Positions 1,596 to 42,294 of a DNA stretch of 64,000 bases are shown here, one piece after another. The stretch's first letter is position 1, and each line of letters begins with the position of its first letter. The position numbers and the translations under genes were made by a program. A model generated the notes under the pieces. That model did not search any database. It saw nothing but the letters and a program-made list of their open reading frames with translations, and was not told where the DNA came from. This DNA comes from Candidatus Obscuribacteraceae bacterium. GTDB taxonomy: Bacteria; Cyanobacteriota; Vampirovibrionia; Obscuribacterales; Obscuribacteraceae. The DNA lies in assembly GCA_044226015.1 (NCBI GenBank), contig JBGAHS010000002.1:1043435-1107434 (forward strand), given 5' to 3'.

Positions 1596-1620
1596 GACAG
1601 ACGCAAGCGGCTTTGGTTCC
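1596..1620 (-). promoter_or_regulatory. ECF-type promoter GGAAC-N17-GTC (patatin / acyl-CoA ligase operon)
   Basis: Minus strand GGAAC caaagccgcttgcgtct GTCTAAG. Confidence 0.75.
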
Positions 1621-1661
1621 CAATTGTAGATGTATGGCAAATTCGCAAAGCCATAGAACCG

Positions 1662-1686
1662 GGAACCTTTACAGCAAACCCTTGTC
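1662..1686 (+). promoter_or_regulatory. ECF-type promoter GGAAC-N17-GTC (hemerythrin-CBS cluster)
   Basis: GGAAC ctttacagcaaaccctt GTCCAAC. Confidence 0.75.
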
Positions 1687-1707
1687 CAACTAACAGATCA
1701 CTAATTC

Positions 1708-2148
1708 ATGTATGGAGTCCATTTAACACTCATGAACAAACCGACCGAATCCAACGAAAAAAGAGTGTTGTCGAAAGATCACAAAAAGCTCAGCAAGCTC
1801 TTAAACAAGTATGCTGATAGCAATAAGATCACTGATAGAGCCGGTTTAGCGCAATTCCTTGCTTCAGAGTTGCACTCACATCTGAAGTTGGAAGAAAAAA
1901 TGATATTCCCTGGGTTGTCACGGAACCCCGAGGGTGAGCGCGTAATAGGTGAAATGCTGCGGGATCATCACGCGATGATAATGATTATCGATGAATTGCT
2001 TGCGATTTGCACAACAAAAAACGATCTTGCATATCAGTCAAAATTGCAAGACTTGAGAGCTGGGCTCAGTGCCCACATTGAGGAATCAGAACACAACTTC
2101 TTGCCGCGCGCGACCGAATTAAAACTGAATAGACCACTTTCGCATTAG
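1708..2148 (+). CDS. Hemerythrin/HHE cation-binding domain protein (alternative start 1732)
   Basis: DH...HLKLEE.MIFP...DH...HIEESE pattern. Confidence 0.85.
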   Translation: MYGVHLTLMNKPTESNEKRVLSKDHKKLSKLLNKYADSNKITDRAGLAQFLASELHSHLKLEEKMIFPGLSRNPEGERVIGEMLRDHHAMIMIIDELLAICTTKNDLAYQSKLQDLRAGLSAHIEESEHNFLPRATELKLNRPLSH

Positions 2149-2206
2149 CGGGTTTCTGTGCGCTTGAGTGAAAGCCGCTGCCTAAGCAGCTAGCAAAGGA
2201 GACATT

Positions 2207-2398
2207 ATGAAAGATAAAAATGATACGGCATTGGAAGACCAGGATAGCAAAAATAAAGATTCCAACAAACTCGAAAATGGCAAGCCCAAAGATCAAAAAC
2301 AAAATCAAAAAGATGAGTCATTGAAGCAGAAGGGCGAAATGGACAATTCGAAGAACAAGGAATGCGACACGGAAAAGAAAAAGTGTTGTGACAGCTAG
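2207..2398 (+). CDS. Small K/D/N/Q-rich hydrophilic protein
   Basis: AAGGAG RBS before ATG; low-complexity charged sequence; colinear with neighbours. Confidence 0.6.
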   Translation: MKDKNDTALEDQDSKNKDSNKLENGKPKDQKQNQKDESLKQKGEMDNSKNKECDTEKKKCCDS

Positions 2399-2959: not shown

Positions 2960-3433
2960 ATGGAAAATGTGTATTTGCTGGAGCTGATTGCGTGCATGGA
3001 GCGCGAAATTGAAGAGCACAATGCAGGTAAATATAGTGGATCTGAAATTCATAGTAACTGCAACGATCGGTTTCAATCTGCAATTGATAAACTAAAAAAT
3101 CAGTACTCGAAACAAGAATTTAATAGAGCGCCAAACTTGCAAGAGGAAGAATGTACTGATGCCTCCGCTAAACGAAAAGTAGTGCGGGGTGAAGAATCAG
3201 AAGGTGCATTGCTGCTTGAAAAATTAGCAAATGAACTCGACCGTCTTGGAATAACAGAGGAAGCGGAACTGGCAAGAGTTCACGCACGCGAATTGCTGGC
3301 TTCCCAGCTAAACGAATTTGATGGATTCAATTATGATGCCGAAGAAGAGAAAAAAGGACCTGCAGTTGTTGATTCAGTGCCCGCGGCTGCACAGCCAGAT
3401 GAATCACAGTACCGCATGGCGGATGGTCCCTAA
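2960..3433 (+). CDS. Hypothetical acidic protein
   Basis: 157-aa ORF with AAGGA RBS. Confidence 0.65.
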   Translation: MENVYLLELIACMEREIEEHNAGKYSGSEIHSNCNDRFQSAIDKLKNQYSKQEFNRAPNLQEEECTDASAKRKVVRGEESEGALLLEKLANELDRLGITEEAELARVHARELLASQLNEFDGFNYDAEEEKKGPAVVDSVPAAAQPDESQYRMADGP

Positions 3434-3452: not shown

Positions 3453-3477
3453 GGAACCGCAGTCCAAATACTACGTC
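3453..3477 (+). promoter_or_regulatory. ECF-type promoter GGAAC-N17-GTC
   Basis: GGAAC cgcagtccaaatactac GTCAAC. Confidence 0.75.
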
Positions 3478-3525: not shown

Positions 3526-3744
3526 ATGCGTGGGCAAATATTTGACTTGATTGAATACCAGGACAAAGCAAGAGGCACGACAAGCCCCAGAGAATTGTTC
3601 AAGCTCTGGGATGAAGTTTGTAAATACTACGAACAAGGCAATATAGGGCTTTACGAATGGGATGAGATGAAGGAATCGATCTATCCTATGCTTCGCGAAT
3701 TAAACAAAATCAAACACATGATAAATGAAAAAAAAGCAGCATAG
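3526..3744 (+). CDS. Small hypothetical protein (alternative start 3511)
   Basis: GAGG RBS; directly downstream of the promoter motif. Confidence 0.65.
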   Translation: MRGQIFDLIEYQDKARGTTSPRELFKLWDEVCKYYEQGNIGLYEWDEMKESIYPMLRELNKIKHMINEKKAA

Positions 3745-3804: not shown

Positions 3805-3829
3805 GGAACTCTGCTCTAGTGACCCCGTC
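3805..3829 (+). promoter_or_regulatory. ECF-type promoter GGAAC-N17-GTC
   Basis: GGAAC tctgctctagtgacccc GTCAAG. Confidence 0.75.
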
Positions 3830-3860: not shown

Positions 3861-4121
3861 ATGAAAGACCTGATCAAAAAATTGTTCATAGCAGGCTCAG
3901 CCCTATCAATGATCGGTATTGTTAACATGCCAGGCGCGGAAGCAAGAGATCATTGGCGATACTATGAGCCAGGCGGATACCGAACCTATTACAATTTGCC
4001 GATGGGCAGTATCGTAGAAGTTCGCAGAGGCTATGGACCAGGCTTCTACCACAGAGGCAGATGGCACAGAGCATATTTCAACGATGGTCGTTGGGGCGTT
4101 AGAGAACGCATGTACTTCTAG
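3861..4121 (+). CDS. Small secreted G/Y/R/W-rich protein
   Basis: AAGGAGG RBS; signal peptide ending AEA; the ORF-track start at 3819 lies inside the promoter. Confidence 0.75.
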   Translation: MKDLIKKLFIAGSALSMIGIVNMPGAEARDHWRYYEPGGYRTYYNLPMGSIVEVRRGYGPGFYHRGRWHRAYFNDGRWGVRERMYF

Positions 4122-4191: not shown

Positions 4192-4216
4192 GGAACGTTA
4201 TTTTATATCTTGCTTC
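4192..4216 (+). promoter_or_regulatory. One-mismatch ECF-type promoter GGAAC-N17-TTC
   Basis: GGAAC gttattttatatcttgc TTCTAT upstream of the ORF at 4245. Confidence 0.5.
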
Positions 4217-4244: not shown

Positions 4245-4514
4245 ATGTTACCTGATTTAGAACCACCGGTGCGACTGAGTCGCCCAACTCGACGTTTTCG
4301 CTTACGAAAAGACTATGGTGCGCTGATTGAAAAGTACGCTCTTTGTGGCGCCATAATGGGCATCCTCACAATGTTTGTGTTAATAATGACGAGCAGCAAA
4401 TACAGCATTATCGCTCAACTCGGCTTCTTTTACTCTCTTGCTTTGGGAGCTGTAATTGGATGCATGGTTTGCACTTTGCTCGGTTGCGTTGCGTCTGGAT
4501 TGAAAGCAGACTAA
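4245..4514 (+). CDS. Small membrane protein with two TM segments
   Basis: AAGGAG RBS; two hydrophobic stretches. Confidence 0.7.
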   Translation: MLPDLEPPVRLSRPTRRFRLRKDYGALIEKYALCGAIMGILTMFVLIMTSSKYSIIAQLGFFYSLALGAVIGCMVCTLLGCVASGLKAD

Positions 4515-7075: not shown

Positions 7076-9346
7076 TTACTGCCACATTTGGGAAGTACCG
7101 GCGATTTCCTGAGACTGGGCAGGCTGTGGAGCAATCTCACCCATATCGCCATTCATAGAGGCTGCTCGCATGACTTGCGGATGCTGAGATGGCAAAGCAG
7201 CACTGGCTGTGGTATCAATTGATGCAGCAGCAGTGTCAGTCCATTGACCTGGTGTTGGTTCTCTAAGACTAACAAGAGCCGTATTGAGAGCCATCAAATC
7301 TCCCACTTTGGCAATTCCAGAATCGTAGACCTTCTTAACCAGGGCATTGTATTCAACAACATTGCCTTGCAGAGCAGCGAATCTGTTAGTGAGTGACTGT
7401 TCGTTTGCCAGAGCCGGAGCCGAAGTTGAGACTGCCATCTGCAAATCATACATTTGCGGCACAGATGATATCAGCGCGTGAGCAGGCTTCGGAAAGCTTA
7501 AGCCTTTAGGCATCGGATGACTTTGGTAGAATCCATGCATTACCTGATGCCAGATTCCTGCCATGACCTTACCACCTGTTACGTCTTTATTGGCAATGGG
7601 TTTATTGTGCTCATTACCAGCCCAGACTGTTGTGACAGTATCAGGAGTGAATCCAACGAACCATATATCCTTGCCTTTATCAGCAGTTCCAGTCTTTCCG
7701 GCAACGGGAATTCCTGCTAAGGATGCTCTTGTTCCGGTGCCATAGCGCACAACGTCTTGCAATACGTCAACAAGCTGTGAAACCTTTTCCGAATCAAGTT
7801 GCTTACTACCAACAGCTTGATACACCTTATAATCTTTTCCACTTTCCGTTCGGATAGCACGCACCAGTTGCGGTTGCATAAATACACCACCTCTAGCAAG
7901 AGTGGCATAGGCGGTGGTCATGTTCAGGGGTGACACCGCGCAAGAGCCTAGCGCTAATGACGGGTAAGGGTCAAGTTGCGCATCTAGTCCAGCTGCTCGC
8001 GCAATACAAATCACTTCATTCAGACCAGTTTCGATGGCCACCCTGGCGGCACATACATTTTTGGAGAATGCCAGAGCGTTGCGTGCGGTCATCCAGCCAT
8101 GAAAGCTCTTATCAAAATTCTTCGGCTCCCATACCTTTGAAAATGCATCGGCAGCAACACTCAATGGCGCGTCGTTGATGACGGTTTCTGGCTCGATTGT
8201 GCCTTGCACCAAGCCTGCAAGATAGACAAATGGCTTAAAAATCGAACCTGCAGTGTGAGCCGCAAGAGCTCTATTCCAGTGATTGGCATCGTTAACCCCG
8301 CCAACTATCGCAAGAACGGCGCCATCTTTGACAGACATCGTCACAAGAGCGCCCTGGTCGATTCCCTTGGGAGCATTTTTGATCGCTTTATTTAGCACAC
8401 TCTCCGCAAGTGCTTGGGTTTTAGGATCCAGGTTGGTGTAAACCTTCCACTCTTGGGTCCACATCTTGTCACCTAGCTCTCTTCTAACTTGTTCAAGAAC
8501 CGGTGAAACATAATAAGGCCATCTAAGTTTCTCTGGACCTGACTTAAACACAAGCTTAGTCTTATGCGCTGACAAAAGGTCATTATCCGAGATGTAACCG
8601 CAGACCTCCAGGTCACGCAGAATTTTATCACGACGAGCTAGAGCCAACTGACGATTAGATGGACGCGCCATTTCCGAAGGTTGGCGAATCAACCCAACGA
8701 GGAAGGCAGATTCAGAAAGATTGAGCTGTCCCGCATGTTTATTGAAAAAATGCTGGGCTGCGCGCTCAATTCCATGCACCCCGTCGCCAAAATAGACTTC
8801 ATTGAGATAAGCCTCTAAGATTTTCGCCTTGGAGTAGTGTGTATCTACATACACTGACATGGCCGCCTCTTTCAACTTTCGTTGATAACTGCGATCATTC
8901 TTATCCAAGTATAAATTTCGAACAAGCTGCTGAGTCACTGTGGAAGCGCCCTGGACAATACGCTTAGCCTTATAATTCACTACTGCTGCGCGCGCCATGC
9001 CACCGATATCGATACCATGATGCTCATAAAAGTGCCTGTCCTCTGAAGCGATGACGCCTTCACGAACGTACTTACTCATTTTAGATAGGGGAACTGGCTC
9101 GCAGTCACGGTCGTGATGAACGGTACATAGCAACTTATCGTTTCTATCATAAAGACTTATGCCCTGTTCCGTTTCTCTTAGAGTAGGAAGCTTGACGTTC
9201 TGACTTTCAAAAAGCCCCCAAAAGTAGAGACCGGCGGCACCGATTATAAATAGACTTAAGACAAGCGGAGCCATAAAAGTAGGTGCAACCCACTTTTGCT
9301 TTTCAGTATCGGAGCTAACAATCTTCTCTTTCTCTACAGTATTCAT
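7076..9346 (-). CDS. Class A penicillin-binding protein (transglycosylase + transpeptidase, PBP1A family)
   Basis: N-terminal TM; SEDRHFYEHHGID, GASTVTQQL; SxxK (SIFK), SKN, KTGT. Confidence 0.95.
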   Translation of the reverse strand: MNTVEKEKIVSSDTEKQKWVAPTFMAPLVLSLFIIGAAGLYFWGLFESQNVKLPTLRETEQGISLYDRNDKLLCTVHHDRDCEPVPLSKMSKYVREGVIASEDRHFYEHHGIDIGGMARAAVVNYKAKRIVQGASTVTQQLVRNLYLDKNDRSYQRKLKEAAMSVYVDTHYSKAKILEAYLNEVYFGDGVHGIERAAQHFFNKHAGQLNLSESAFLVGLIRQPSEMARPSNRQLALARRDKILRDLEVCGYISDNDLLSAHKTKLVFKSGPEKLRWPYYVSPVLEQVRRELGDKMWTQEWKVYTNLDPKTQALAESVLNKAIKNAPKGIDQGALVTMSVKDGAVLAIVGGVNDANHWNRALAAHTAGSIFKPFVYLAGLVQGTIEPETVINDAPLSVAADAFSKVWEPKNFDKSFHGWMTARNALAFSKNVCAARVAIETGLNEVICIARAAGLDAQLDPYPSLALGSCAVSPLNMTTAYATLARGGVFMQPQLVRAIRTESGKDYKVYQAVGSKQLDSEKVSQLVDVLQDVVRYGTGTRASLAGIPVAGKTGTADKGKDIWFVGFTPDTVTTVWAGNEHNKPIANKDVTGGKVMAGIWHQVMHGFYQSHPMPKGLSFPKPAHALISSVPQMYDLQMAVSTSAPALANEQSLTNRFAALQGNVVEYNALVKKVYDSGIAKVGDLMALNTALVSLREPTPGQWTDTAAASIDTTASAALPSQHPQVMRAASMNGDMGEIAPQPAQSQEIAGTSQMWQ

Positions 9347-9382: not shown

Positions 9383-9407
9383 GACGCGAGGGCAGCATGA
9401 TCGTTCC
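9383..9407 (-). promoter_or_regulatory. ECF-type promoter GGAAC-N17-GTC (PBP1A)
   Basis: Minus strand GGAAC gatcatgctgccctcgc GTCTCT. Confidence 0.75.
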
Positions 9408-10717: not shown

Positions 10718-11539
10718 TTAAATTGCCTTTCTGTCAAATGGCATATGGGCCATAGTGTCTGCCAGCTCAAGTCTGAGTGCTCGCATTTCCTCAGAAAGCC
10801 TGGTAAGCGCTTCTATGTCCTTTTTCCTACCTTGTAGGTCATTTCGTAGGCGACCCAAATCATGAATACGTCCGAGGGTCTGCTGCGCTTTTTCCAGCTG
10901 CTTGGATGGCTCCGCACCAAAGTCCTCAAGAAGATATCGCCAATTTTTCACTGCAATTCGAAGCCTGTGAAGTGCTTTGTAATCAGCAGCGGATGAAAGC
11001 GATTGCGTCAACTTGGCTTGGTCATTCAATACCAGCGCAAGATGCCGAGATGCTGACTCATTCCGAAGGTCTGACTTATGAATATGCTTTGCCACAACCC
11101 GTACTTCTTTGCGAAAGAATGTTCGTAGATTTTCGATCAGTTCTGCAATATCAATAGACTTCAAGAAATCTTTCAACTTACCTTTCTGCTTTCTGCGTTT
11201 ATTTTTCCATCTTCGCAACAGTTGTGGTCGACATCCGAGTTCGTCACCTAATTTGAGGTTTACATCGAGATCTCTCACGTCGCCCAGCCTATCAAGCAGC
11301 CTTCTGAGCTGAGCAACGTCTTTCTTTTCAAACCTAAAATCTTGCCAGCCATCCTGAACCAACACTGCCCATAAAGCAAAGAAATGACGCAACGCTATTC
11401 GGGCATCGTGAATATTGCTTCGACTTGTTTTTTCAGCCAGGCTCCGCAAGACTTTCTCCAGACCATTCAAAACGCGCTCACTAGCTTTAGCCTCAGCATT
11501 CAACCATGGAATTGTGCCTGTTTTAGAACTCGTTTTCAT
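10718..11539 (-). CDS. CHAD domain protein (polyphosphate-binding family)
   Basis: IHDARIALR, LGDVRDLDV, LHRLRIAVKNWRY, LGRIHD; GGAGG RBS before ATG 11539. Confidence 0.9.
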   Translation of the reverse strand: MKTSSKTGTIPWLNAEAKASERVLNGLEKVLRSLAEKTSRSNIHDARIALRHFFALWAVLVQDGWQDFRFEKKDVAQLRRLLDRLGDVRDLDVNLKLGDELGCRPQLLRRWKNKRRKQKGKLKDFLKSIDIAELIENLRTFFRKEVRVVAKHIHKSDLRNESASRHLALVLNDQAKLTQSLSSAADYKALHRLRIAVKNWRYLLEDFGAEPSKQLEKAQQTLGRIHDLGRLRNDLQGRKKDIEALTRLSEEMRALRLELADTMAHMPFDRKAI

Positions 11540-11550: not shown

Positions 11551-11991
11551 CTATTTGTGAGCTAACATTGTGTTGACATCAGCAAGAGAGAAGGCTGATT
11601 CATCAAGATCGACTCCTTCTTCCTCAAGAAAATACTGTTTTTCAAGAATAGCTTTGATGTCCTCAGTGATATTCTCGATTTGGTTGGGGGCAACCAAAAT
11701 AAGCCTGGTAGTGCCATTTTTCACAAGATCAGACAATAAAGCGCTTGTTTCGACTCGTGAAGAATCATCCGTGACGGCGATAACCTGTCGCCATAAGATG
11801 TGTTCAGGTTGCCAGAATTCTGGAGGTGCCACCATATCCAGCGGCATGTGAAGAGCCTTAGCCATGTCATAGGCAATAGGAACAGACTGATATCCGAGAG
11901 CTACTACAGCCCACTCTTGGTCTGCATAACAAAGCAATTTTTCAATAAATGCTCTGGCAACTTTAATCTTGCTTTGAAACTGCATAGACAT
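11551..11991 (-). CDS. Degenerate phosphoribosyltransferase-like protein
   Basis: VVALGYQSVPIAYDMAKALHMPLD and RQVIAVTDD resemble type I PRTase motifs but diverge from them. Confidence 0.55.
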   Translation of the reverse strand: MSMQFQSKIKVARAFIEKLLCYADQEWAVVALGYQSVPIAYDMAKALHMPLDMVAPPEFWQPEHILWRQVIAVTDDSSRVETSALLSDLVKNGTTRLILVAPNQIENITEDIKAILEKQYFLEEEGVDLDESAFSLADVNTMLAHK

Positions 11992-12016: not shown

Positions 12017-12041
12017 GACACCCCGGTGCATTTAAAGTTCC
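12017..12041 (-). promoter_or_regulatory. ECF-type promoter GGAAC-N17-GTC (PRTase-like / CHAD)
   Basis: Minus strand GGAAC tttaaatgcaccggggt GTCATT. Confidence 0.75.
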
Positions 12042-12076: not shown

Positions 12077-15000
12077 TTACTGATGCTGACTTTCAACCTC
12101 ACCTGTTTTCACGTCAAAAACGACGGTTTGTCCAGACCTTAGCTCTACCACGTCTTTTGAACCAACCTTGATTGCGTCGGCGCTGCTATGTCCCGCCGTC
12201 ACTAGAATCTTTCGCTGACATATATCTACTTTAACACTCTGATGACGATACTGAATTCGAAAGGACAACCTGTTGATGCCTTTCGGCAAGTTAGGGTTCA
12301 GCCAGAGGACATCATCTCTCGTCACCATACCTGTGTAGCATCTTTGCACTATGTCTACGGTGCCGGCCATTGCTCCAAGATGTATTCCTTCCGGTGTCGT
12401 GCCCCCCTGAATATCCATATAATCACTGCTCAGAGCTTCCCGAAATAAGCCCCAACTAGCTCCTACGTGCTCAGGATCCATCTGCATTTTTCCTTCCACC
12501 ACAGCAGCATCTTTGTTTTCACCACTCGCGTTACGAAGCGCGGATAAGAGCTTTAGTGAATTTTTTCTATCAATGCGCGACAAAACCCAGCTCAGAGCAA
12601 CACGGCTCAGGGTCGACTTGTTAGAAGTTCTCTTGATGTAATAATCAACATTTAAGTCAAACGCCTCAGTGTCAAAATCATAACCAAGGTGCTGGAATAT
12701 TTCCTTCAACTCCTCAGTACTGAATAGGTAAAACAACATGAGTACATCAGCTTGCTTGGATACTTTGTACTTGTTAAAAGTGCCCCCTTCGTGGCCAAAA
12801 ACTTTATCCAATTTATTCATATCGAGCTTTTCATCCTTGTAAAAAGGAAACTCCTCAAGCTTCTCGTATCCCTCAAATTGTTCTATAAATCCGGATTCGC
12901 CAAAAGGAACGAAGAACTTTGCACTCATACTGTTCCACTGAGCCACCTCCTCCTCACTTACATTGAGCCGCTCTAATAGCTCATCACAGCGATCCTCGGG
13001 AATGATCTTTATAAGTTCAAGGGCTCTGCAAAGGCACCACGAAGCCATCACATTTGTGTAGGCGTTATTATTAATGCCAGGATGCTCAGACCCAGGATAT
13101 TTGACGTGATACTCGTCTGGACCAACAACACCATGCAGCTCGAATCGCTCGCGATCTTTGTTCCAAATTGCTATGCTGGAAAAAAACCGCGCAATTTCCA
13201 TTACTAACTCCGCGCCGTAAGCGTAGAGAAATTCTAGATTTCCAGTCACCTGGTAGTATTGCCAGACGTCCATGACGATTGCGGCATTAACGTGAATCTG
13301 CATGTGACTATAGTCGGGTACCCATTCATTCCTCGTCGGATACCAGATAGCGGCAGGTGTTTCTTCTCTTCCACTGCTTCCACTTTGCCAGGGAAAACAG
13401 GCTCCCTTCGCACCACGCTGACGAGCAATTTCTCGCGCAGCATCGAGTCTTCGATATCGATACTTAAGCAGCGACTGAGTTACTTCGGGTAACCTCAAAT
13501 TGACAAAAGGAAAGCAAAACAGGTCGTCCCAGAAGACATGCCCCTGGTAACCCTCAGTCCATCCACGAGCAGGAACACCGACATCAAGATCAACAGAGTT
13601 TATACAAACAGTTTGCAGAACATGGAAACTGTGCAAATGAAGCAGGAGTGAAATGTCCTTTCGAGAATTAACATCATCAGTTTCAATTGCCAAATCGAAG
13701 CGGCGCCAAAGCTGATGCCAGGCTTCCTTTTGTTCCTCAACCAATAAATCAAAACTCGATTTCCTTCCAAGGACAAGATTTTTTGCAGCTGCCTCTGGCG
13801 ATGCAATTGCGAAGTCTTTAGAGGAATAAACTGCCACCATTTTCTGTACTTGCACGCGAACGTTGCGCTTCAACTCGAGTTCATAATCATTCCTCGCTAC
13901 GCCGTTGTGGGCATAACTATTCGGCGTTCCTTTCTGCTCATGACCATCAATGAGTATGTATGTCGAAGCACAGACAGCAATCTCTACATTAGACTGTCTT
14001 GTTTTTACTAAGACAAATAAACCATTTTTGTCAGCTTCACTAGACAAGGACGCAAGATGCGCCTTTCCCATGTTTGAATAGAGTCGTGTACCTATGTTGG
14101 AAACCGAACCATCAATTGCGGAGCGAACGGTAAGCCTGCCATCCCAGTTTAGAGCCGTAAATGTAAGCTCGATTCCGCAAATGTGAGTCGAACGCATGTG
14201 CACGAACCGTCGCTCTGCAACAGCTGTTTGCCGTCCCTTCTTGTCAGTGAACTCAAGAAACCGATAGAGAATTCCCTCGCGCAAATTAAGTTCTTGCCGC
14301 CACTTTTGCAATTCTACTTTGTCGATCGAGAACCAATTGTCGTCCTCGATCTTGAACTGAAGCAAGGTCCAATTCGGAATATTGACCAGGTCCTCATACT
14401 CAAATGACGTAGTCTCACTTGAATAAAGCGATCTGTCATAAACACCAGCAAGGTATGAACCGGGAGAGTGAATTTCATTCGCGACAGATTCACACGACGC
14501 TGCTCGGCACGCCAAATATCCATTACCAAGCATACACAAAGCTTCCCTTCTGCCAACAAGCGAAGGATCGTACTCATCAAAAACAAGCGACCAACTTTCA
14601 TCGCTCACTCCAAGATCGGCAACGGCATAAGACGCAAGTTCTTTCTTTGTGCCCGCAAGCTCGACTTCATCAAGATCGTCAACAACTAAATCCGCACCAT
14701 GCTTGATCAATGCATCTCTGTGATTGGCACGGTTGACACCTATTACAAGTCCAAACTGTCCAAGCCTTCCCGCTTCGACTCCCGCCTCAGCGTCTTCGAT
14801 GACTACAGCATTCCCCTCCTCGACATTCAATTCTTGAGCAGCGTGCAAAAATGTGTCCGGAAAGGGCTTGCCACGAAGCCCTAGAGTGTGCGCATCGACA
14901 CCATCGACTACAGCATCAAAAACATTCTCAATGCCAGCTGCTTTGAGGATTTGTCGACCATTTTCGCTTGCGGTGATGACAGCGACTTTAGCACCAGACT

Positions 15001-15430: not shown

Positions 15431-15455
15431 GACGTACCATAAGTTGTACGGTTCC
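15431..15455 (-). promoter_or_regulatory. ECF-type promoter GGAAC-N17-GTC (HAD-GH65)
   Basis: Minus strand GGAAC cgtacaacttatggtac GTCTCG. Confidence 0.75.
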
Positions 15456-31000: not shown

Positions 31001-34000
31001 GGTGGTCAGGCAGACGTTAAAGGTGTGTCTGGAACGTGGAAAGACCTTACGGACTCCGTAAATGGAATGGCGTCTAACCTCACAGAGCAAGTACGTGGAA
31101 TTGCAGGAGTTGTAACCGCGGTAGCACAAGGTAACTTGAAGCGAACTCTGGTACTGCAAGCGAAAGGTGAAATCGCGTCACTGGCAGACACGATCAACGA
31201 GATGATCGACACGCTTGCGACATTCGCCGACCAGGTAACCACGGTAGCAAGAGAAGTAGGTGTTGAAGGTGTACTTGGCGGTCAGGCACTGGTGCCTGGT
31301 GCAGCAGGTACATGGAGAGACTTGACCGACAACGTTAATGGATTGGCAGCAAATCTCACCACACAGGTACGAGCTATCGCTGAAGTAGCAACAGCGGTAA
31401 CGAAGGGTGACTTGACGCGATCCATCGACGTTGAAGCAAGAGGTGAAGTAGCATCACTCAAAGACAATATCAACGAGATGATTCGCAACCTGAAAGACAC
31501 GACACAGAAGAACACGGAGCAAGACTGGCTCAAGACGAACCTTGCGAAGTTCACTTCTATGTTGCAAGGTCAACGCGAGATGATTACGGTAGCCAACCTG
31601 ATTCTCTCAGAAGTAGCACCACTGGTAAGGGCACAACACGGCGTCTTCTATGTCAACGAACTGGAAGAAAACGAGCCTGTACTGCGCTTGCTGGGCAGCT
31701 ATGCGTTCCAGAAGAGAAAGCATCTGTCAGAAAAATACAAGATGCGCGAAGGCATCATCGGGCAGTGCGCACTCGAGAAACAAAGAATATTGATTCTCGA
31801 TGCACCCAAAGACTACATCACGATTTCATCAGGACTGGGAGAAGCAGCTCCCGTAAATATAGTTGCGCTGCCAGTTCTGTTTGAAGGCGAAGTCAAAGCG
31901 GTAATCGAGCTGGCTTCGTTCCAGCACTTCAGTGAGACTCACCTGGCGTTCCTCGACCAGCTTACAGAGTCAATTGGAATCGTTTTGAACACAATCGAAG
32001 CGAACATGAGAACAGAAAACCTCCTCATGCAATCACAATCACTCGCGCAAGAGTTGCAAGCACAGCAACAAGAATTGACAGAAACAAACAAGCGACTGGA
32101 ACAACAGGCAAAAACACTGAAAGCATCAGAAGATTTGCTTACAAAACAACAACAAGAACTCCAACAAACAAACGACGAGTTGCAGGACAAAGCACAACTG
32201 CTTGCCCTACAAAACGCGGAAGTGGAAAAGAAGAACAGCGAAATCGAGCAAGCAAGACTTTCACTGGAAGAAAAGGCGGAGCAGCTTGCTCTCACTTCGA
32301 AGTATAAGTCGGAGTTTTTGGCAAACATGTCGCATGAGTTGCGCACGCCACTGAACTCTCTCTTGATTCTCTCAAAATTGCTGACGGACAACTCCGATGG
32401 CAATCTAACGACAAAGCAAGTAGAGTTTGCAAAAACGATTCACGACTCAGGCTCAGACCTGCTGGCACTCATCAACGACATTCTCGACCTGTCCAAGATT
32501 GAGTCTGGAACAATCTCCATTGATGTTGGCGAGTTTCACATCTCAGACCTCACCGAAGGTCTTGAGCGCATCTTCCGTCAGGTGGCAGAGTCAAAGGGAC
32601 TTGATTTCAACATCCAGGTGGATCCATCAACGCCTCGCGTGATAACCACCGATTCGAAGAGACTGCAACAAGTTCTGAAAAACCTACTTTCAAACGCCTT
32701 CAAGTTCACTGAGCAGGGTGGCGTAACTCTAGAAATTAAGCCGACCACAGTCGGTTGGGACCCAAGCCGAGGCACCTTAAATCGGGCACAGACGGTTCTC
32801 TCATTCTCGGTTCGTGACACCGGCATTGGCATTGCTCAAGAAAAGCAGAAGATCATCTTCGAAGCATTCCAACAAGCTGACGGAAGCACAAGCCGCAAAT
32901 ATGGTGGCACCGGACTCGGGCTACCTATCAGTCGCGAAATCTCCAGCCTGCTTGGCGGCGAAATTCGCGTATCGAGTGCACCGAGCGAAGGCAGTACCTT
33001 CACCCTTTTCATGCCGGCAGACTATGTAGAGCCCACTGTGAAACCGCATGTTTTCAGCGCGCCAGTATCAGAATTCCGATTTAAGGAAGGCATCGTAGTC
33101 GATTCAAGTGCTAGCCCGAGCAACGATTCTTCTCTGCTTATTGAAACCGCTATGGCAGACGATCGGGGCAGCCTGCAAGAGAATGATCGTGTTCTGCTAA
33201 TTGTAGAAGACGACTTACATTTTGCGCGCCTGCTTCTAGATGAAGCCCGCGAGCACGGCTTCAAGGGCATCGTAGCTGCCACAGGTGAATCAGGTCTAGC
33301 CCTGGCGACTAGGTTTGGACCAGATGCGATAACACTCGACCTGCGCCTGCCAGACATGGATGGTTGGGCTGTGCTTGACCGTTTAAAACACGATACCAAA
33401 ACACGGCACATACCAGTGCATGTTATCTCGGCAGCAGACTCACAACCGCACCGTGCCTTTTCTCAAGGTGGCATCGGTTATGTCGAAAAGCCGGTCACGA
33501 AAGAGGCTCTGGGTGACGCGTTGAATGGAATCAAGGACTTCATTGAGAAACCAACTAAGACACTACTAGTTATAGATGCCGATGACGAACAGAGACACAA
33601 CATACTGGAACTCTTGAATGAATCAGACATTCAAGTACATGCGGTTAGCTCTGGAGAAGAAGCGTTGCAGCGACTTTCTTCACGTCAGTTTGACTGCGTG
33701 GTCGTAAATCCTCAGTTGCCGGACATGGAACTGAGTGACCTCATTAACAAGATGGAGCATGACTTGAAGATTCAAAAGCTTCCGATGATCATCTACAAAT
33801 CTAAAGACATGGAAGATGAAGAAGAGGGCAATGGTAAGAAAGAAACTGAACTCTTACGCAAATTTAGAGAAGCAGTCATTGTCCGAGAAGCTCAATCACC
33901 CGATCATCTTCTGGATGAAACAGCGCTATTCCTTCACCGTGTAGCAACGAAGCTACCAGACGTAAAACGCAAGATGCTCGAACATGCTCATGCGCAAGAT

Positions 34001-34384
34001 ACTATTCTTGCCGGCAGAAAGATTCTTGTAGTTGATGACGATGTTCGAAACATCTTTGCGTTAACGAGCATTCTTGAAACACAGCAAATGACCGTACTCT
34101 ATGCACAAAATGGACATGAGGCTCTCAGTGTCCTGGAGAGCAATCCTGACATTGAGATCGTGCTTATGGACGTAATGATGCCTGATATGGATGGTTATGA
34201 AACGACCAGACGTGTGAGGCTGATGCCCGAGTTCAGAAATCTACCAATCATTGCACTAACAGCAAAAGCGATGAAAGGCGATAGAGAAAAATGCATCGAA
34301 GCCGGTGCTTCAGATTACATCGCGAAGCCTGTACACACAGAGCAACTTAAGTCGCTGCTACGCGTCTGGTTGTATGACCAATAA
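28007..34384 (+). CDS. Poly-HAMP hybrid histidine kinase (about 12 x 92-aa HAMP units, GAF, HisKA, HATPase, 3 REC); OsaA / fungal group III-like
   Basis: Repeats [59 protein letters not shown]; three receiver domains; GGAG RBS before ATG 28007. Confidence 0.96.
28420..31480 (+). repeat. In-frame 276-bp tandem repeat encoding the poly-HAMP chain
   Basis: Near-identical 92-aa units, about 11 well-conserved copies. Confidence 0.9.
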
Positions 34385-34469: not shown

Positions 34470-36653
34470 ATGTCAACAGAGCAAGTAAAAATCTTGATTG
34501 TTGATGACCAGCCAGAAAATATTCTGGCCCTGGAGTCCGTTTTGGTGGACCTTGGCGAACAGCTAATCTCAGCATCATCTGGACGAGAAGCACTAAAGCA
34601 TCTGCTCGACCACGAGTTTGCCATTATCTTGATGGACTTAAAGATGCCAGGCATGACCGGCTTTGAGACAGCAGAGTTAATTCGGTCTCGCCAGAAATGC
34701 AGATACACTCCGATAATATTCCTTACTGCAGCATACACTGAAGATGTCCATGAATCAGAGGGATATGCCCTCGGGGCCGTCGACTTCATCACTAAACCGT
34801 TCGTCCCTGAAATTCTGAAATCAAAGGTCACAGTTTTTGTCGACCTCTACAAAAAGACACAAGAGATAAAAAAGCAAACCGACCTCATTACTCTTATCGA
34901 ACGCAAGCGATTGCAGGAAGCAAGAACGCGACTCGATGCTGAGCGTCAATTGATGCAAGAAGAACTGCTGCGTAAAGAAGCAGAGAGAGCATTGCTACTT
35001 GAACGCAGCTTGCAGCTTCAAAAATCAGAACAATTAAAAACTGAATTTTTGGCAAACATGAGTCACGAAATAAGAACGCCAATGCATGGCATTGTCGGTT
35101 TTATCGAACTCCTGACGCGCACCGAATTGAACGACGAGCAGAGGCAATATGCAGATTTCATAGCGCAATCAGCAAACTCCTTGCTGACTTTGATTAACGA
35201 CATTCTGGATCTTTCAAAAGTAGAAGCTGGCAAACTCGATTTAGAAACAGTCGAATTCGATCTGCGATCAGTCGTAGAAGGCACCGCTACACTCGTTGCA
35301 GAGTCGGTTAGAGAAAAGAATCTCAGCTTAATGACTTTCATCGACCCTGACATTCCAGCAGTGCTGCAAGGTGACCCTGGTCGCTTGCGACAGATTTTGA
35401 TGAACCTGATTAGCAATGCTGTGAAGTTTACAGACGAAGGAGAAGTCGTGATTCGCTGCCAGAAAGGAGATACTCCAGACGGCTCGAGACCAAACTCCCA
35501 AAACATCTATTTCAGTGTGAGCGACACAGGCATTGGAATTGCAAAACATCACCTTCCGCATCTGTTTAAGCCCTTTTCTCAAGCAGATGGCTCCACCACG
35601 CGCAAGTATGGTGGCACTGGACTGGGACTGTCCATTTCTAAACGCCTTATAGAATTGATGGGAGGCGATATAGGCGTTAACTCCGAGCCAGGAAAAGGCT
35701 CAACCTTCTGGTTTAAAATCACACTTCCAATTGCTACGTCCATAACTGCGACTCCTCCACTGCGAGACAACAGCCATCGACGAGTTCTTGTAATTGACGA
35801 TCATGCAAGTGCCAGGCGTATCATGCAGACATACTTGCAATCATGGGGAATGTCTTGTGACGTCGCAATAAACGGACAAGACGGACTTGAGCTGATGAGA
35901 ACTAGCGTTACAGAAAATAAGCCTTACGACATTGTCATCACTGACCTTGTTCTGCCAGGAATGGACGGTTTCAAATTGCGCGAGCAGATGGAGCAAGACC
36001 CTAACCTGCAAAAGATGAAAACACTTTTGATCACAGGCTACGATCTGAAGGATAGAGGAAAATCAGCATTAGCAGCTGGGTTCAGCGCTTACCTGACCAA
36101 GCCTCTTGAACAATCACGTTTGTTCAACGCCATAGTGCACATACTGACAGCAAGTGAAAATCCTGAAGAGGAGACAAACGCAGCTGAGAATCTCCTGGAA
36201 AAGAAAGAATCTTCCACTGAAACATCAATAATTCTCCTTGCGGAAGACAACCCAGTTAATCAGAAAGTAGCCACGCTTCAATTAAGTCAGCTTGGTTTCA
36301 AGTGTCATACCACCAGCAATGGAAGAGAGGCAGCTGAAGAATTCGAGCGGAATGGAAATTACGCTTTGATATTCATGGATTGCCAGATGCCCGAGATGGA
36401 TGGGTTCCAGGCAACAAAAGCCATACGCGACCTTGAGGTGCTACGCGGCACACACATTCCTATTGTAGGGCTCACAGCTTACGCAATGGAGGGTGATCGA
36501 GACAAGTGTATTGCAGCAGGAATGGATGACTATGTCAGTAAGCCATCGTCATTCGATAAATTAGCCACAGTTCTAAAAAAATGGCTCCCGGTGCATGCGG
36601 ATGCAATTACCGAGAGACAAAAACTTCTACCAAAACAGCGTTCTACAAAGTAA
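34470..36653 (+). CDS. Hybrid histidine kinase/response regulator (REC-HisKA-HATPase-REC-REC)
   Basis: [52 protein letters not shown]. Confidence 0.95.
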
Positions 36654-36731: not shown

Positions 36732-37235
36732 TTAACCTATATCTCGTTGCCCACCTTGACCAAACATGGGAAACCACACAAATGAGTTGGTAGTACCCTG
36801 GCGCAATCTGTTCAGAGTTTTGTATGCGCGAGATGATACATAGGGATTATCGTCTTCGCAGAGTTTACTTAGAACAGTGAGTGGCAGATTGTGATTTTCT
36901 GCAAGACTGTATCTCACGTCCACAGCCTCATCACCAGCCAGAAGTAAAAGGACTCTAGCAGGGGTATTTGGATTTTCAGTCAATGCAATTCGAACATCGA
37001 CACATTGATGCCTGGCGAGATCTTCCAGGGTTTCAACATTCGTGTTAGCGTTCTCAGCCACTCTAGCTACGATGTCGTAGCAATCATGGCGAGAAAGCCT
37101 CTTCAAGCACCACGGTTTGGCTTCGGGGTGCGATGCCAAACGCATCTTCGCCAAAATAACCTTTGGTACTCCTCCAACTTCTTGTCCGTTCTCATCGTGT
37201 GAAAAGAAGCGGTCAAAAATTTTCTTTAGCTCCAT
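36732..37235 (-). CDS. Variant leucine-rich (LRV) repeat protein
   Basis: VAENANT, LTENPNTP, LAENHNLP, DDNPYV; AGGAGG RBS before ATG 37235. Confidence 0.85.
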   Translation of the reverse strand: MELKKIFDRFFSHDENGQEVGGVPKVILAKMRLASHPEAKPWCLKRLSRHDCYDIVARVAENANTNVETLEDLARHQCVDVRIALTENPNTPARVLLLLAGDEAVDVRYSLAENHNLPLTVLSKLCEDDNPYVSSRAYKTLNRLRQGTTNSFVWFPMFGQGGQRDIG

Positions 37236-37374: not shown

Positions 37375-37399
37375 GACGCAGGGCGAATAGGCATGTTCC
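37375..37399 (-). promoter_or_regulatory. ECF-type promoter GGAAC-N17-GTC
   Basis: Minus strand GGAAC atgcctattcgccctgc GTCTAC. Confidence 0.72.
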
Positions 37400-38440: not shown

Positions 38441-40639
38441 GTGACACAATCCAAACAACGCTATGAGTTGGTGGATACGAGTTATGAAGTCGACACTCGT
38501 CCACTATGTTCTGGCATGCCTTTCGTTTTGACGGATGCAGCCCATCCACGAATGGTGCTAAAAAATGGCAGCCATTTCCTTGTAATGGACGAGATGGCTC
38601 AAATGCCAGCGTGCAACAGCTTAGGCTATGGATATTATCGCTTCGACACCCGCCATCTCAGCCAATGGGAAATGTACTTGAACGACGTGCCCCTTTCCTT
38701 GCTGTCGAGTGATCTGCAACATGGTTATTCAGGACGTTTCTTGTACACGAATCCACAACTGGATGGAATGTCACAGCAAAAAATTACAGTGGAAAGACAA
38801 ATCGTGGTGGGTGATTTGCTCTGGGAAAATATTCGACTAGAAAACTTCGGTGGCAAACCATACGATCTGGAACTTTCATTCCGCTTTCAATCAGACTTCG
38901 CGGACATGTTTGAAGTTCGAGGATTGAATCGCGGTGAACGCGGGCATCGCATGCTGCCGTCGAGCAAAGCAGACAATTCAGCGATATTTCTTGCTTACAG
39001 AGGACTTGATGGAGTTCTTCTTGAAACGATTATAGAATTTTTCGGAATGAAGCCACATGAAATTCGTGACGGCGTAGCCAAGTTCAAAATGCAGCTTCCC
39101 CTTAGAGGTCAAATTGAGTTTGGTTTTTGCATCGTGACCAAAATGGGTGGGCACACGATAGGCCAGATTGATTCCGAAGTTTCATTTCATAAGGCAAAGA
39201 CTTCTACAGACGATCACTACAAACAATGGCGCCGAAATACAGTACAGATAGACACCGCTAACGAGTTGTTCAACGTCTCGCTCGGTCGCTCCATCGATGA
39301 CTACTATATATTGAGGCAACCTACTCCCAAAGGTTATGGGCTAGCAGCTGGATTGCCCTGGTATGCAGCAGTGTTTGGCAGGGATAGCGCAATCGCAGCG
39401 CTGCAAGCTGTACCTTTCATGCCGGCGTTAGCCAGAGAGAGCATTGAAGTTTTAGCTGCTTATCAGGGACAAAAAAGCGATGTCTACAAGGTAGAAGAAG
39501 AGGGCAAGATAATGCACGAGCTTCGCCTGGGAGAGCTAGCTAGAACTGGTCAAATTCCTCATGCGCCCTATTACGGAACGGTGGATGCGACCCAGCTATG
39601 GCTGATGTTATTTTGTGAGTACTTCAACTGGACGGGCGACCAGGCGTTCGCAACAGAACTATGGCCAGCGGTGAAAGCTGCCCTTGCATTTCTCGACCGA
39701 GCTGCTGATGAGGGTGATGGCTATATCTTCTATCACCCCAGCCCTAATGGACTAATCAATCAGGGATGGAAAGACTCTGACGATTCCATTATGCATATGG
39801 ATGGAACGCTAGCCGAAGCACCAATTGCGGTGGCAGAAGCGCAAGCCTACCTATACTCTGCAAAACTTCAACTCTCACGTGTTGCTGAAAAACTCGGGCA
39901 TCATCAACTGGCAAACAAACTTACAAATGAAGCGGCTATTCTGAAAGACATGTTCCAGAAAGATTTCTGGATGACTACCGAACGATTTATCTGTATCGCA
40001 CTGGACAAACAAAGGCATCAGGTCGGAGCCATTAGCTCGAATGCAGGACACGCTTTATGGGCTGAAATACTCGATGAGGACAAAGCACATTCAGTTGCAG
40101 ACCGTCTGATGAAACCAGATATGCACTCTGGTTGGGGCATTCGAACCTTATCTGATAACATAGTTGCGTTCAATCCCGTCAGCTATCACAACGGCTCTGT
40201 CTGGCCGCACGACAATGCGATAATCGCCGAAGGCATGCGAAAACTGGGACGCATAGACGACATGCTCAAGATCATGTATGGCATTGTGGAAGTTTCCATG
40301 ACGGACAATGAGCATCGCTTACCTGAAGTATTTTGCGGTTTTGAACGAGTTGGCTCACTAAAACCAGTTGAGTACCCTGTTTCTTGTTCGCCTCAAGCCT
40401 GGGCAGCCGGCAGTATTCTGCACATGATTAAGTCTTGCCTGAATTTTCAACCAGATGCGCAAAACAAGTGTTTAAAGATAGTCGACCCAGCCCTTCCAGA
40501 ATGGATCGGAAATATTTCCATTCGCGGATTGCGTGTGGGAAATGCCACACTGGACATAGGATTTGAATCGCATATGGGAAGTACTTTTGCAAAGATCCTC
40601 CGAAAATCTGGAACTCTCAAGGTAGTGATTGAAAACTAG
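38441..40639 (+). CDS. Amylo-alpha-1,6-glucosidase / glycogen debranching enzyme family protein
   Basis: DFADMFEVRG, AAGLPWY...FGRDS, GKIMHELR, YYGTVDAT, NQGWKDS, YHNGSVWPHD, PQAWAAG. Confidence 0.93.
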   Translation: MTQSKQRYELVDTSYEVDTRPLCSGMPFVLTDAAHPRMVLKNGSHFLVMDEMAQMPACNSLGYGYYRFDTRHLSQWEMYLNDVPLSLLSSDLQHGYSGRFLYTNPQLDGMSQQKITVERQIVVGDLLWENIRLENFGGKPYDLELSFRFQSDFADMFEVRGLNRGERGHRMLPSSKADNSAIFLAYRGLDGVLLETIIEFFGMKPHEIRDGVAKFKMQLPLRGQIEFGFCIVTKMGGHTIGQIDSEVSFHKAKTSTDDHYKQWRRNTVQIDTANELFNVSLGRSIDDYYILRQPTPKGYGLAAGLPWYAAVFGRDSAIAALQAVPFMPALARESIEVLAAYQGQKSDVYKVEEEGKIMHELRLGELARTGQIPHAPYYGTVDATQLWLMLFCEYFNWTGDQAFATELWPAVKAALAFLDRAADEGDGYIFYHPSPNGLINQGWKDSDDSIMHMDGTLAEAPIAVAEAQAYLYSAKLQLSRVAEKLGHHQLANKLTNEAAILKDMFQKDFWMTTERFICIALDKQRHQVGAISSNAGHALWAEILDEDKAHSVADRLMKPDMHSGWGIRTLSDNIVAFNPVSYHNGSVWPHDNAIIAEGMRKLGRIDDMLKIMYGIVEVSMTDNEHRLPEVFCGFERVGSLKPVEYPVSCSPQAWAAGSILHMIKSCLNFQPDAQNKCLKIVDPALPEWIGNISIRGLRVGNATLDIGFESHMGSTFAKILRKSGTLKVVIEN

Positions 40640-40690
40640 ATTTTGATAGCAACTCTCAATTCAGAAAAAAAAAACAAGGAGCATAGAAAC

Positions 40691-41764
40691 ATGCGTATAG
40701 CGCAATTGGCACCCCTGGCAGAAAGCGTTCCCCCGAAGGGTTATGGCGGCACAGAATTGGTCATCAACCTATTGACAGAGGGATTGATTGAAGCCGGGCA
40801 CGATGTCACACTATTTGCATCCGGCGACTCGGAGACTTCAGCCGAATTAGTTTCAATTACGGATCGAGCGCTTCGTCTCGACAGCTCAATTCCAACGCGC
40901 CGCTGGTCGGCCTATTCGTTGAAACAACTGATAGAGTTTGAGCGAAGGCACAAAGAATTCGATATTGTGCATAGCCATATGGGATATGAGTCGTTTGACC
41001 TCTTACAGAGAATTAGCTGTCCAAGCTTGCTTACAAATCACAATCCGGTTCGCGATTACTGCGCGCCTTTGTATTTCGCTAACTCCAATCTAAACTATGT
41101 AGCTATTAGTAATGCCTATAAAAGATTGAATTATCCTGAAAAAATAAATTACGTTGCCACCATTCATAATGGCATCGACATCGAGCGCCACACTTTTGAT
41201 AGCTCTAAAGAGCGCAGCTATTTGTTGTTCATTGGCAGAATTTGCAAAGACAAAGGAACAGCCGACGCAATTGAAATTGCTAAAAGATTGAGCTTACCTC
41301 TAAAAATTGCCGGCAAAGTTGACGAAGCAGATAGAGACTACTTTAACGAACTCGTTGAGCCTTTGCTGGACCCGCCGAATATTGAGTACATCGGAGAAGT
41401 AAATTTCGAGCAAAAGAATGAACTCTATCAACAAGCTATTGCAGTAATCTACCCGATAGCTTTCGAGGAACCATTTGGATTGGTCATTGCAGAATCTATC
41501 GCTATGGGAGCGCCAGTTGTTGCACTTGAAAGAGGCTCTGTTTCCGAGCTAATCATTGACGGTAAAACTGGTGTCGTAGGAAAAACAGTTGACGAACTCG
41601 TATCAAAATTCGACGCCATCAAGAAGATATCGGCAGAAGAGTGTCGGGATTATGCAAAAAAGAATTTCTCCAAAGAGAAAATGGTGAACGATTACATCAA
41701 GCTCTATGAGAGACTGTCTAAGGAACAAAATGCGCTCCGCGCCTCAGCCGCCGGAGCACGTTGA
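40691..41764 (+). CDS. Glycosyltransferase family 4
   Basis: MRIAQLAPLAESVPPKGYGGTE, HDVTLFASGDS, EPFGLVIAE. Confidence 0.93.
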   Translation: MRIAQLAPLAESVPPKGYGGTELVINLLTEGLIEAGHDVTLFASGDSETSAELVSITDRALRLDSSIPTRRWSAYSLKQLIEFERRHKEFDIVHSHMGYESFDLLQRISCPSLLTNHNPVRDYCAPLYFANSNLNYVAISNAYKRLNYPEKINYVATIHNGIDIERHTFDSSKERSYLLFIGRICKDKGTADAIEIAKRLSLPLKIAGKVDEADRDYFNELVEPLLDPPNIEYIGEVNFEQKNELYQQAIAVIYPIAFEEPFGLVIAESIAMGAPVVALERGSVSELIIDGKTGVVGKTVDELVSKFDAIKKISAEECRDYAKKNFSKEKMVNDYIKLYERLSKEQNALRASAAGAR

Positions 41765-41998
41765 TCGCTTCCGGGACAAAGCCAAAAAGCTTGTAGAGTG
41801 CGCGCCTTGCTCCATTGGCGCGCACTCTATTCAACAGATGCTTGGATCGCCAATTTGAAATAATTCCCTGCAAATTTCAAAAAACATTCCACCAGAGCCC
41901 CCAACCTCCTCAGGTCAGTCTTAAGCTGTGGTGGAATATTTTTCTTGCTAGTCGGAACAGAAATGAGGGACTATTCCGGTCTGGCACAAGTATTAAAA

Positions 41999-42181
41999 CT
42001 ACGCTACATTTCTATCATCATGTTTGAATGGCGGTCGACCATTTCTTCGTTCAGTAAGTTCAGCATCTTCAATGGTGTGAATCAATTCTTTCATTTGGAC
42101 TGCCAGGATTCGCTTGATGTCTAACCAGAGTTCGCTCACATCTACTTGCGTATACTCGTCTTCGCATCTCAATTCATTCAT
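41999..42181 (-). CDS. 60-aa hypothetical protein
   Basis: GAGGAGG RBS and its own promoter motif upstream. Confidence 0.65.
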   Translation of the reverse strand: MNELRCEDEYTQVDVSELWLDIKRILAVQMKELIHTIEDAELTERRNGRPPFKHDDRNVA

Positions 42182-42269
42182 CGGTCCTCCTCAGCAGGCG
42201 GCACATTTGTACTTACCTGTTTCCCTCATCTTCTTCCGGAATTTTGCTTATTCCGAATACGACCTAATA

Positions 42270-42294
42270 GACAACTGATCGATATAAATGTTCC
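42270..42294 (-). promoter_or_regulatory. ECF-type promoter GGAAC-N17-GTC (last exact copy seen)
   Basis: Minus strand GGAAC atttatatcgatcagtt GTCTAT. Confidence 0.72.

Follow-up and report, generated by a model that had tools for sequence, protein, structure and literature searches.

The window analysed here is a 64,000-nucleotide stretch of a Candidatus Obscuribacteraceae genome (positions 1,043,435-1,107,434 of contig JBGAHS010000002.1), from a non-photosynthetic lineage related to the cyanobacteria. The source genome, 8.19 Mb in 13 contigs, is labelled G000 below, with contigs C1, C5 and so on. The bipartite motif GGAAC-N17-GTC recurs in the window ahead of genes for DNA repair, protection and sugar metabolism. 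Sequence comparisons suggest that these sites are promoters of a general-stress regulon, read by extracytoplasmic function (ECF) sigma factors of the SigG family. Since the gene calls come from our own simple caller (6024 genes, 86% coding), start positions are approximate. The features, in window coordinates, are as follows.

1596-1620, minus strand: predicted SigG-family promoter, ahead of a patatin gene (422-1495) and then an overlapping AMP-binding/acyltransferase gene
1662-1686, plus strand: predicted promoter, ahead of a hemerythrin gene (1708 or 1732 to 2148), a small open reading frame (ORF), a CBS-protein gene and ORF 2960-3433
3453-3477, plus strand: predicted promoter, ahead of a 72-residue ORF (3526-3744) with no Pfam match
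3805-3829, plus strand: predicted promoter, ahead of a small exported-type ORF (3861-4121)
4192-4216, plus strand: one-mismatch site, uncertain, preceding ORF 4245-4514
9383-9407, minus strand: predicted promoter, ahead of a PBP1A-type gene (7076-9346)
12017-12041, minus strand: predicted promoter, ahead of ORF 11551-11991 and a CHAD-protein gene (10718-11539)
15431-15455, minus strand: predicted promoter, ahead of HAD-GH65 (12077-15406; beta-phosphoglucomutase-like plus family-65 glycoside hydrolase)
15857-15881, minus strand: GGAAC-N16-CGCC variant, preceding ORF 15538-15822
15933-15957, plus strand: predicted promoter, ahead of a 133-residue exported-type ORF (15989-16390)
16553-17410, minus strand: Ku (non-homologous end joining; TIGR02772, above the NCBIfam cut-off)
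17857-17881, minus strand: predicted promoter, ahead of ORF 17427-17813 and then, after a 16-nt gap, ku
17969-19075, plus strand: LigD polymerase domain, with no exact motif upstream
19235-19837, minus strand: ferritin/Dps-like protein, closing a probable operon that starts at 21961
22026-22050, minus strand: GGAAC-N16-CGCC variant, ahead of YtxH-like (21623-21961), YflT-like (20856-21626) and coiled-coil (19880-20767) genes and the ferritin-like gene
22086-22110, plus strand: predicted promoter for an ABC1 kinase (end 23860), if its second ATG is used
25142-25166, minus strand: predicted promoter, ahead of a GFO/IDH/MocA oxidoreductase gene (23968-25077)
25230-25254, plus strand: predicted promoter, ahead of a 51-residue ORF (25290-25445)
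25595-26638, plus strand: RpoD-like sigma factor of group 2, probably not transcribed from the 25230 site
28007-34384, plus strand: hybrid histidine kinase with 12 HAMP, GAF, HisKA, HATPase and 3 REC domains (the poly-HAMP kinase)
34470-36653, plus strand: hybrid kinase, REC-HisKA-HATPase-REC-REC
37375-37399, minus strand: predicted promoter, ahead of an LRV-repeat protein gene (36732-37235)
38441-41764, plus strand: glycogen-debranching/MGH1-like hydrolase plus GT4 glycosyltransferase, with the weak 38364 site only
42270-42294, minus strand: predicted promoter, ahead of a 60-residue ORF (41999-42181); right edge of the island

The original prediction had placed 14 exact copies of the motif in the window, eight of them with C before GTC, and all were recovered in position and strand. 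The window total is nevertheless 16. The two extra matches, at 30155(+) and 30983(+), lie within the coding sequence of the poly-HAMP kinase, where they arise from the codons of a repeated 10-residue HAMP stretch. As had been supposed, few copies are expected by chance: 100 dinucleotide shuffles of the window gave a mean of 1.29 sites and a maximum of four (in at most 4 of the 100 runs), none reaching 16, and other spacers gave two sites (N15) or none (N16, N18). Every copy was said to lie upstream of a start codon and to point into the gene. This holds for 13 of the 14, which by our gene calls are intergenic and 25-140 nt 5' of a same-strand start, whereas 22086(+) runs into the opening codons of the longest ABC1-kinase ORF; for it to lie upstream, translation would have to begin at the following ATG, about 45 nt further on. 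The one-mismatch sites reported at 4192(+), 15881(-) and 22050(-) were all found; the latter two read GGAAC-N16-CGCC, a variant enriched genome-wide (16 versus 1-5 at other spacers). GAAAC-N16-GTC is present at 38364(+), but its spacing is not enriched in the genome (15 versus 6-18) and we set it aside as a promoter site. Direct control of the group-2 sigma gene at 25595 from the 25230(+) site was also dropped, because a terminator-like hairpin (approximately 25465-25495) intervenes between the 51-residue ORF and that gene. In relatives, orthologs of the GFO/IDH/MocA gene (G001 and G056) and of the debranching/GT4 unit (G077) have a site directly upstream, an exact one in G077.

The behaviour of the motif across the genome is that of a promoter. 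Only 14% of the DNA is intergenic, but it holds 114 of the 256 exact sites, and 90 sites point into a same-strand gene within 200 nt; eight control spacers gave 11-34 intergenic and 4-20 oriented sites. When all 5+3 words found upstream of genes are compared without bias, GGAAC-N17-GTC ranks first (90 versus 7.2 expected). A sigma-70 consensus scan, with 24 matches versus 18 expected, was uninformative. Sites in co-directional gaps are sense in 50 cases and antisense in 4, and none of 85 is nearer than 22 nt to a start. Position 6 of the motif disfavours G, the base before GTC is C or A, and CGCC, GAAAC-N17 and N18 forms are enriched more weakly. With the fixed spacer, bipartite boxes, intergenic placement and strand orientation of ECF promoters all in evidence, as the original prediction had it, GGAAC-N17-GTC likely acts as an RpoE-type ECF promoter, its two boxes being the predicted -35 and -10 elements. 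A match to both RpoE/AlgU and alphaproteobacterial EcfG promoters had been proposed. The RpoE type fits; the GGAAC-N16-CGTT promoter of EcfG does not, the second box here being GTC, with CGTT not enriched (2 copies versus 54 of CGTC).

G000 has 17 matches to sigma region 2, and the best-matching named relatives of one of its ECFs are from Obscuribacterales (63-65% identity). A SigG family can be picked out among its ECF factors; ECFs unrelated to that family lie at C10:281235, C1:118319 and C2:65855. The canonical member of the family, C7:19045-19674, is followed by a gene whose product combines three zf-HC2 domains with a single hydrophobic segment. Of the 150 other genomes of the phylum, 129 have one gene each that matches the C7 factor, which is 49-54% identical to the single-copy ECF of photosynthetic-class genomes. 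On the grounds of homology, single copy and motif we infer that it is SigG. Its closest solved structures are AlgU-type factors, Mycobacterium tuberculosis SigE and RpoE, and it scores below the RpoE equivalog cut-off (144 versus 236 bits). Two intact paralogs (C11:1011766 and C5:136041) are 53-54% identical to the C7 factor, and no zinc anti-sigma gene was found beside paralogs by an HxxxCxxC test of their loci. Canonical SigG and both intact paralogs share the same residues at the positions aligned to RpoE K56, N80, N84, R171, S172 and F175, contact positions taken from PMC7776599 and transferred through an AlgU-type alignment. The exact motif is not directly upstream of either the C11 or the C5 paralog; a GGAAC..GTC pair upstream of the former has a spacer of 14 and was not counted. 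A paralog of ORF 15989-16390 adjoins the C11 sigma gene and likewise has the motif. In a tree from which 15 of 64 rows were left out as near-duplicates or surplus outgroups, all 29 paralogs come from Obscuribacteraceae and fall on one side of a branch with support of 79. A third paralog (C10:498805-499482) is degenerate, its -10 and -35 DNA-contact residues gone; it stands directly before a motif-led csbD and may be either a gene in decay or a mimic of a sigma factor.

The motif can be tied to this family by its position at sigG genes throughout the phylum. In the other class of the phylum, the exact motif lies about 140 nt before the alignment start of the single SigG-like gene at 22 of 26 loci, with an N18 form at three and no motif at one. 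In the class Vampirovibrionia the motif is found within sigG itself, some 184 nt short of the stop codon, and faces the anti-sigma gene. By counts made by eye, this internal motif occurs in 104 of the 125 class genomes that match a degenerate codon pattern (201 searched), including all 54 Obscuribacteraceae genomes listed and none of 17 in one low-GC family; in G000 it occupies C7:19207-19231. Across most of the class the motif codons are invariant whereas adjacent synonymous Arg and Thr codons vary, and the three paralog matches in Obscuribacteraceae are without the internal motif. The internal site is a probable promoter for the anti-sigma gene. A predicted SigG motif of GGAAC/GTC has been published (PMC8155712), and we hold it very probable that GGAAC-N17-GTC is the SigG-family promoter. 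The motif could alternatively be read by one of the unrelated ECFs listed above, GGAAC -35 boxes being common among such factors, or be a transcription-factor site and no promoter. Both options are very improbable in view of the strict orientation and spacer, the phylum-wide occurrence of the motif in autoregulatory positions at sigG-like genes, and the lack of motif excess in two genomes without SigG matches.

The 41 kb first assigned to the cluster proved too short. The 32 kb that precede the window contain ten further exact intergenic sites (C1:1,012,053-1,039,888), so that the island spans C1:1,012,053-1,085,728 (74 kb). It holds 21 of the 89 motif-led genes of G000, and 5000 permutations weighted by upstream length never placed more than eight such genes in 75 kb; the clustering is therefore real. 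The original proposal of control over the whole island needs correction, since the motif does not lead every gene: an exact site immediately precedes 21 of its 69 called genes, and ligD, the poly-HAMP kinase gene and the group-2 sigma gene at 25595 have none there. The regulon is also genome-wide, about three quarters of it (68 of 89 motif-led genes) lying outside the island. Stress-type targets, by contrast, are present as claimed. Ku, the LigD polymerase, hemerythrin, two CBS proteins and ferritin/Dps-like, YtxH-like and YflT-like proteins are encoded in the island. Sugar and glucan metabolism is represented by HAD-GH65, a trehalose-phosphate-synthase-like GT20, the debranching-type hydrolase and GT4, and signalling by the 12-HAMP and second hybrid kinases; DUF2383, cupin, nitroreductase, patatin and PBP1A genes and two group-2 sigma genes are also found. 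In the scanned part of the 68 outside genes are those for CsbD, aquaporin, MscS, HtpX-like and Skp-like (Skp/OmpH) proteins and many small exported proteins.

That the island might be a recently acquired mobile block, with promoters for a foreign regulator, is suggested by its dense accessory genes, by a GC content at third codon positions of 0.44 versus 0.47, and by its size: the same flanking genes enclose about 84 kb here, 28 kb in G007, 16.5 kb in G006 and at least 28 kb in G002, all congeners. We consider this hardly credible. Tetranucleotide deviation is in the normal range, the HAMP repeat excepted; there is no tRNA gene within 980-1130 kb of C1; no integrase occurs among the island proteins scanned (no search for direct repeats was made at its edges); most motif-led genes lie elsewhere in the genome; and the kinase pair is retained at the locus in all three congeners, the poly-HAMP kinase forming a core conserved in the genus. 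A single recent acquisition is already largely refuted. Native composition, absence of tRNA genes and varying size around a constant kinase pair instead indicate a native site that gains and loses genes. The assemblies of congeners G002 and G003, in 230-290 contigs, are too fragmented to judge clustering. In G007 the locus occurs twice with identical scores (C18, C28), as a duplication or an assembly artefact.

The original prediction attributed the island to one ECF factor encoded outside the window. The location is right, the SigG-family genes being on C7, C11 and C5, but three intact factors with the same DNA-contact residues could read the motif. Several comparisons point to the paralogs. 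Among 83 Obscuribacteraceae genomes at least 80% complete, the median motif excess (N17 minus N20 count) was -4.5 with no SigG-like match (n=2), 4 with one (n=17) and 55 with two or more (n=64), copies being matches at E<=1e-30. At genus level (8 versus 22 genera) excess follows paralog presence (p=0.008, kinship not corrected). Sites around Ku in eight relatives numbered 17 in 60 kb (G001), 17 in 40 kb (G037), 12 in 40 kb (G056), 9 in 60 kb (G072), 6 in 60 kb (G077), 2 in 20 kb (G030), 2 in 60 kb (G021) and 0 in 40 kb (G045). The Ku region includes a paralog in G001, G037, G072, G030 and G021; Ku and island genes are present in G045 as well, but a SigG match is lacking there. Single-contig G044 has 13 of its 72 sites within 50 kb around the paralog (random maximum 7), and its paralog island has 17 sites in 80 kb; in congener G007 a paralog lies inside the same locus between the same flanks, with 11 sites. 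At 20 loci chosen by sigma match alone, an island-type marker lay within about 10 kb at 17 of 18 paralog and neither of two canonical loci, compared with 43 of 398 ordinary 20-kb windows (11%), though motif counts at these loci were often low (0-6 per 20 kb). Under a strict CGTC pattern, 8 of 19 and 7 of 23 sites are oriented in the single-SigG genomes G068 and G089, mostly before signal-peptide-like proteins, whereas in the two-copy congener G072 the figure is 17 of 27, and genes for Ku, DUF2383, trehalose-phosphate synthase and a group-2 sigma factor join the targets. Taken together, these observations make orphan SigG paralogs the probable main driver of the island.

A number of points weigh against this assignment. 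The copy count takes in degenerate copies, the genomes are related and incomplete, and N20, used because reversed patterns differ in base composition, served as the only control. The markers were chosen by hand once the first loci had been seen, and four of the 17 positives have LRV as their sole marker; monophyly of the paralogs has support of only 79. In single-contig G021, which has no site cluster, a paralog sits in a ku-dps-csbD operon with no motif nearby; genus g21 combines paralogs with a low excess (-1 to 39), and an excess alongside a single listed copy is seen in G040 and G060. Neither paralog is in the island of G000, nor does the locus contain one in congeners G006 and G002. Since the copies are inseparable by sequence specificity, cross-reading is likely, and canonical SigG may drive some or all of the sites. 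The whole set might then be run by canonical SigG and its anti-sigma, the island being an enlarged envelope-stress regulon and the paralogs minor amplifiers or passengers. Canonical sigG is near-universal and itself carries the motif, signal-peptide-like N-termini occur (by a crude rule) in 43 of the 89 targets versus 19% genome-wide, and HtpX-like, Skp/OmpH, MscS and PBP genes are targets of envelope type, all of which, like the paralog-free island, would fit. We nonetheless regard this account as rather unlikely: single-copy genomes have little motif excess, stress-gene neighbourhoods hold paralogs and not canonical sigG, and the paralogs of G000, having no motif directly upstream, are not simple downstream amplifiers.

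How the paralogs might be switched on is a more tentative matter. A REC-Hpt gene lies within about 2.5 kb of a paralog in G000 (C11), G034, G037, G044, G072, G077, G078, G083 and G087, and a poly-HAMP kinase gene is near one in G034, G037, G044, G056, G072 and G087. Upstream of paralogs there is a GGG-N4-CCC-like inverted repeat, which may be a NarL-type box. An expectation-maximization model trained on 13 loci placed 8 of 18 held-out loci, and none of 10 canonical ones, above the 90th background percentile. Against this, a symmetric matrix recovered two of the 18 and gave no genome-wide excess over shuffles, and a literature search for a matching NarL-family (NreC) box returned nothing relevant, so we assign no regulator family to it. 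G000 encodes 16 GerE-domain proteins. Activation through a poly-HAMP kinase/Hpt relay is offered as a possibility only. Similar repeats occur in the window at 27000-27080, upstream of a TPR gene (27151), and at 27645-27670, before the poly-HAMP kinase. Genes at C8:272394-274493 resemble, by eye, an RsbR/RsbS/RsbT stressosome set; the best inverted-repeat match is upstream of an adjoining gene for a REC protein.

Two group-2 sigma genes outside the island (C11:1374560-1375549 and C9:101651-102661) are also preceded by the exact motif. The ortholog of the C11 gene in G072 is motif-led as well, and near-identical site sequences occur in G002 and G003. This arrangement suggests a sigma cascade.

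A second bipartite motif, TTGAAC(T/C)TT-N14-CGT(T/C), has 31 upstream copies in G000 (7.6 expected), none in the window. Fourteen downstream genes, picked by eye and scanned with Pfam, included ComM-like Mg-chelatase, PriA, XseA, RadC, ribonucleotide reductase, DnaE, SbcC, DnaB, UPF0102, DprA winged-helix, ComF-like phosphoribosyltransferase and integrase matches; the set resembles a regulon for competence or DNA repair under a further alternative sigma factor. Outside the island, the gene for a 1544-residue protein at 56319-60953 (minus strand) has a GC-rich tandem repeat of 90-nt period, with motif-search matches at 58278, 58368 and 58458, and a short ORF of imperfect PDKIG-type repeats at 63721-63921 (minus strand) is possibly a DNA repeat rather than a gene.

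Cyanobacterial SigG is an RpoE-like factor cotranscribed with sapG (PMC2758279) and tied to envelope repair (PMC6495340, citing Bell et al. 2017); no ECF group for it is stated in the passages covered of PMC7826278 or PMC11119718. The C7 copy resembles it as a single-copy ortholog (130 of 151 genomes match, one each outside G000) with an anti-sigma gene downstream, and the G000 motif equals the published SigG prediction. In contrast, the family is multi-copy in Obscuribacteraceae, where the C11 and C5 paralogs have no zinc anti-sigma downstream, the autoregulatory motif is inside sigG rather than upstream, and the targets include general-stress genes in an island. Escherichia coli sigma-E offers a parallel for the internal site, since promoter rseAp3 within rpoE serves rseA (PMC8595263). 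The SigG family differs from sigma-E and AlgU in its zinc-type anti-sigma, which takes the place of RseA, in the equivalog score, and in having the sigma gene itself within the island in Obscuribacteraceae relatives. Clustered stress genes recall the Pseudomonas aeruginosa stress/trehalose island PA2134-PA2192 (bioRxiv 10.1101/523126).

There is a functional analogy with the alphaproteobacterial EcfG (ECF15) regulon of 79 units, which includes csbD, ku-ligD, mscS, envelope genes and paralogous sigmas (PMC7083833). Regulon size, target set and sigma paralogs are similar, so that the present system would work alike without being a member. Its sigma derives from SigG, its neighbours are a poly-HAMP kinase and REC-Hpt, and no small anti-sigma was found beside the paralogs by the HxxxCxxC test, which would not catch NepR. 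Streptomyces OsaA is likewise a hybrid kinase with more than 10 HAMP domains and REC (PMC9739842), comparable to the 12-HAMP kinase here, which is also followed by a REC-led gene. The partner here, however, is REC-HisKA-HATPase-REC-REC, whereas OsaB is of a REC plus coiled-coil type; Hpt proteins are present, and the link is to an ECF rather than to SigB.

The reading we favour, with reasonable though far from full confidence, is that orphan SigG paralogs are the main drivers of a general-stress regulon, which is layered on an older envelope regulon. In the ancestral layer, canonical SigG would be restrained by a membrane-anchored zinc anti-sigma and would drive mostly exported and envelope genes, while the promoter within sigG would raise anti-sigma levels, a negative feedback like that of rseAp3. 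In the derived layer, sigG would have been duplicated in Obscuribacteraceae, the copies losing the anti-sigma and keeping the DNA-contact residues. These paralogs may then have taken on general-stress genes (Ku/LigD, Dps-like, CsbD, trehalose and glucan enzymes, hemerythrin, CBS proteins and two group-2 sigmas), which would gather around the poly-HAMP kinase, at a native chromosomal site that grows and shrinks between species. The least certain step is a signal path from the poly-HAMP kinase through REC-Hpt to a NarL-type regulator that would act on the GGG-N4-CCC-like repeat and so on paralog transcription. The fullest version, that Obscuribacteraceae evolved their own general stress response, with a duplicated SigG freed of its anti-sigma, placed under a poly-HAMP/Hpt/NarL-type relay, kept beside its targets in self-contained islands that expand and contract, and feeding group-2 sigmas, is doubtful.

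Promoters of this type, genes of this kind and their clustering are familiar in themselves. What our analysis adds is a concrete prediction of how stress survival is controlled, with regulator, promoter and targets named, in a lineage for which, in agreement with the original prediction, no described regulon was found in the literature covered, which included only a minority of subscription papers. The cyanobacterial SigG promoter is also supported by conservation, and the analysis points to an rseAp3-like internal promoter kept by synonymous-codon constraint and to a likely route from an envelope ECF to a general-stress factor, convergent with EcfG and AlgU. Reading of the motif by extra SigG copies would make this a general stress response of separate origin from those in Bacillus, E. 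coli and the alphaproteobacteria. If the fullest version is true, the sister class of the photosynthetic cyanobacteria would possess a separate control architecture beside RpoS, SigB and PhyR-NepR-EcfG.

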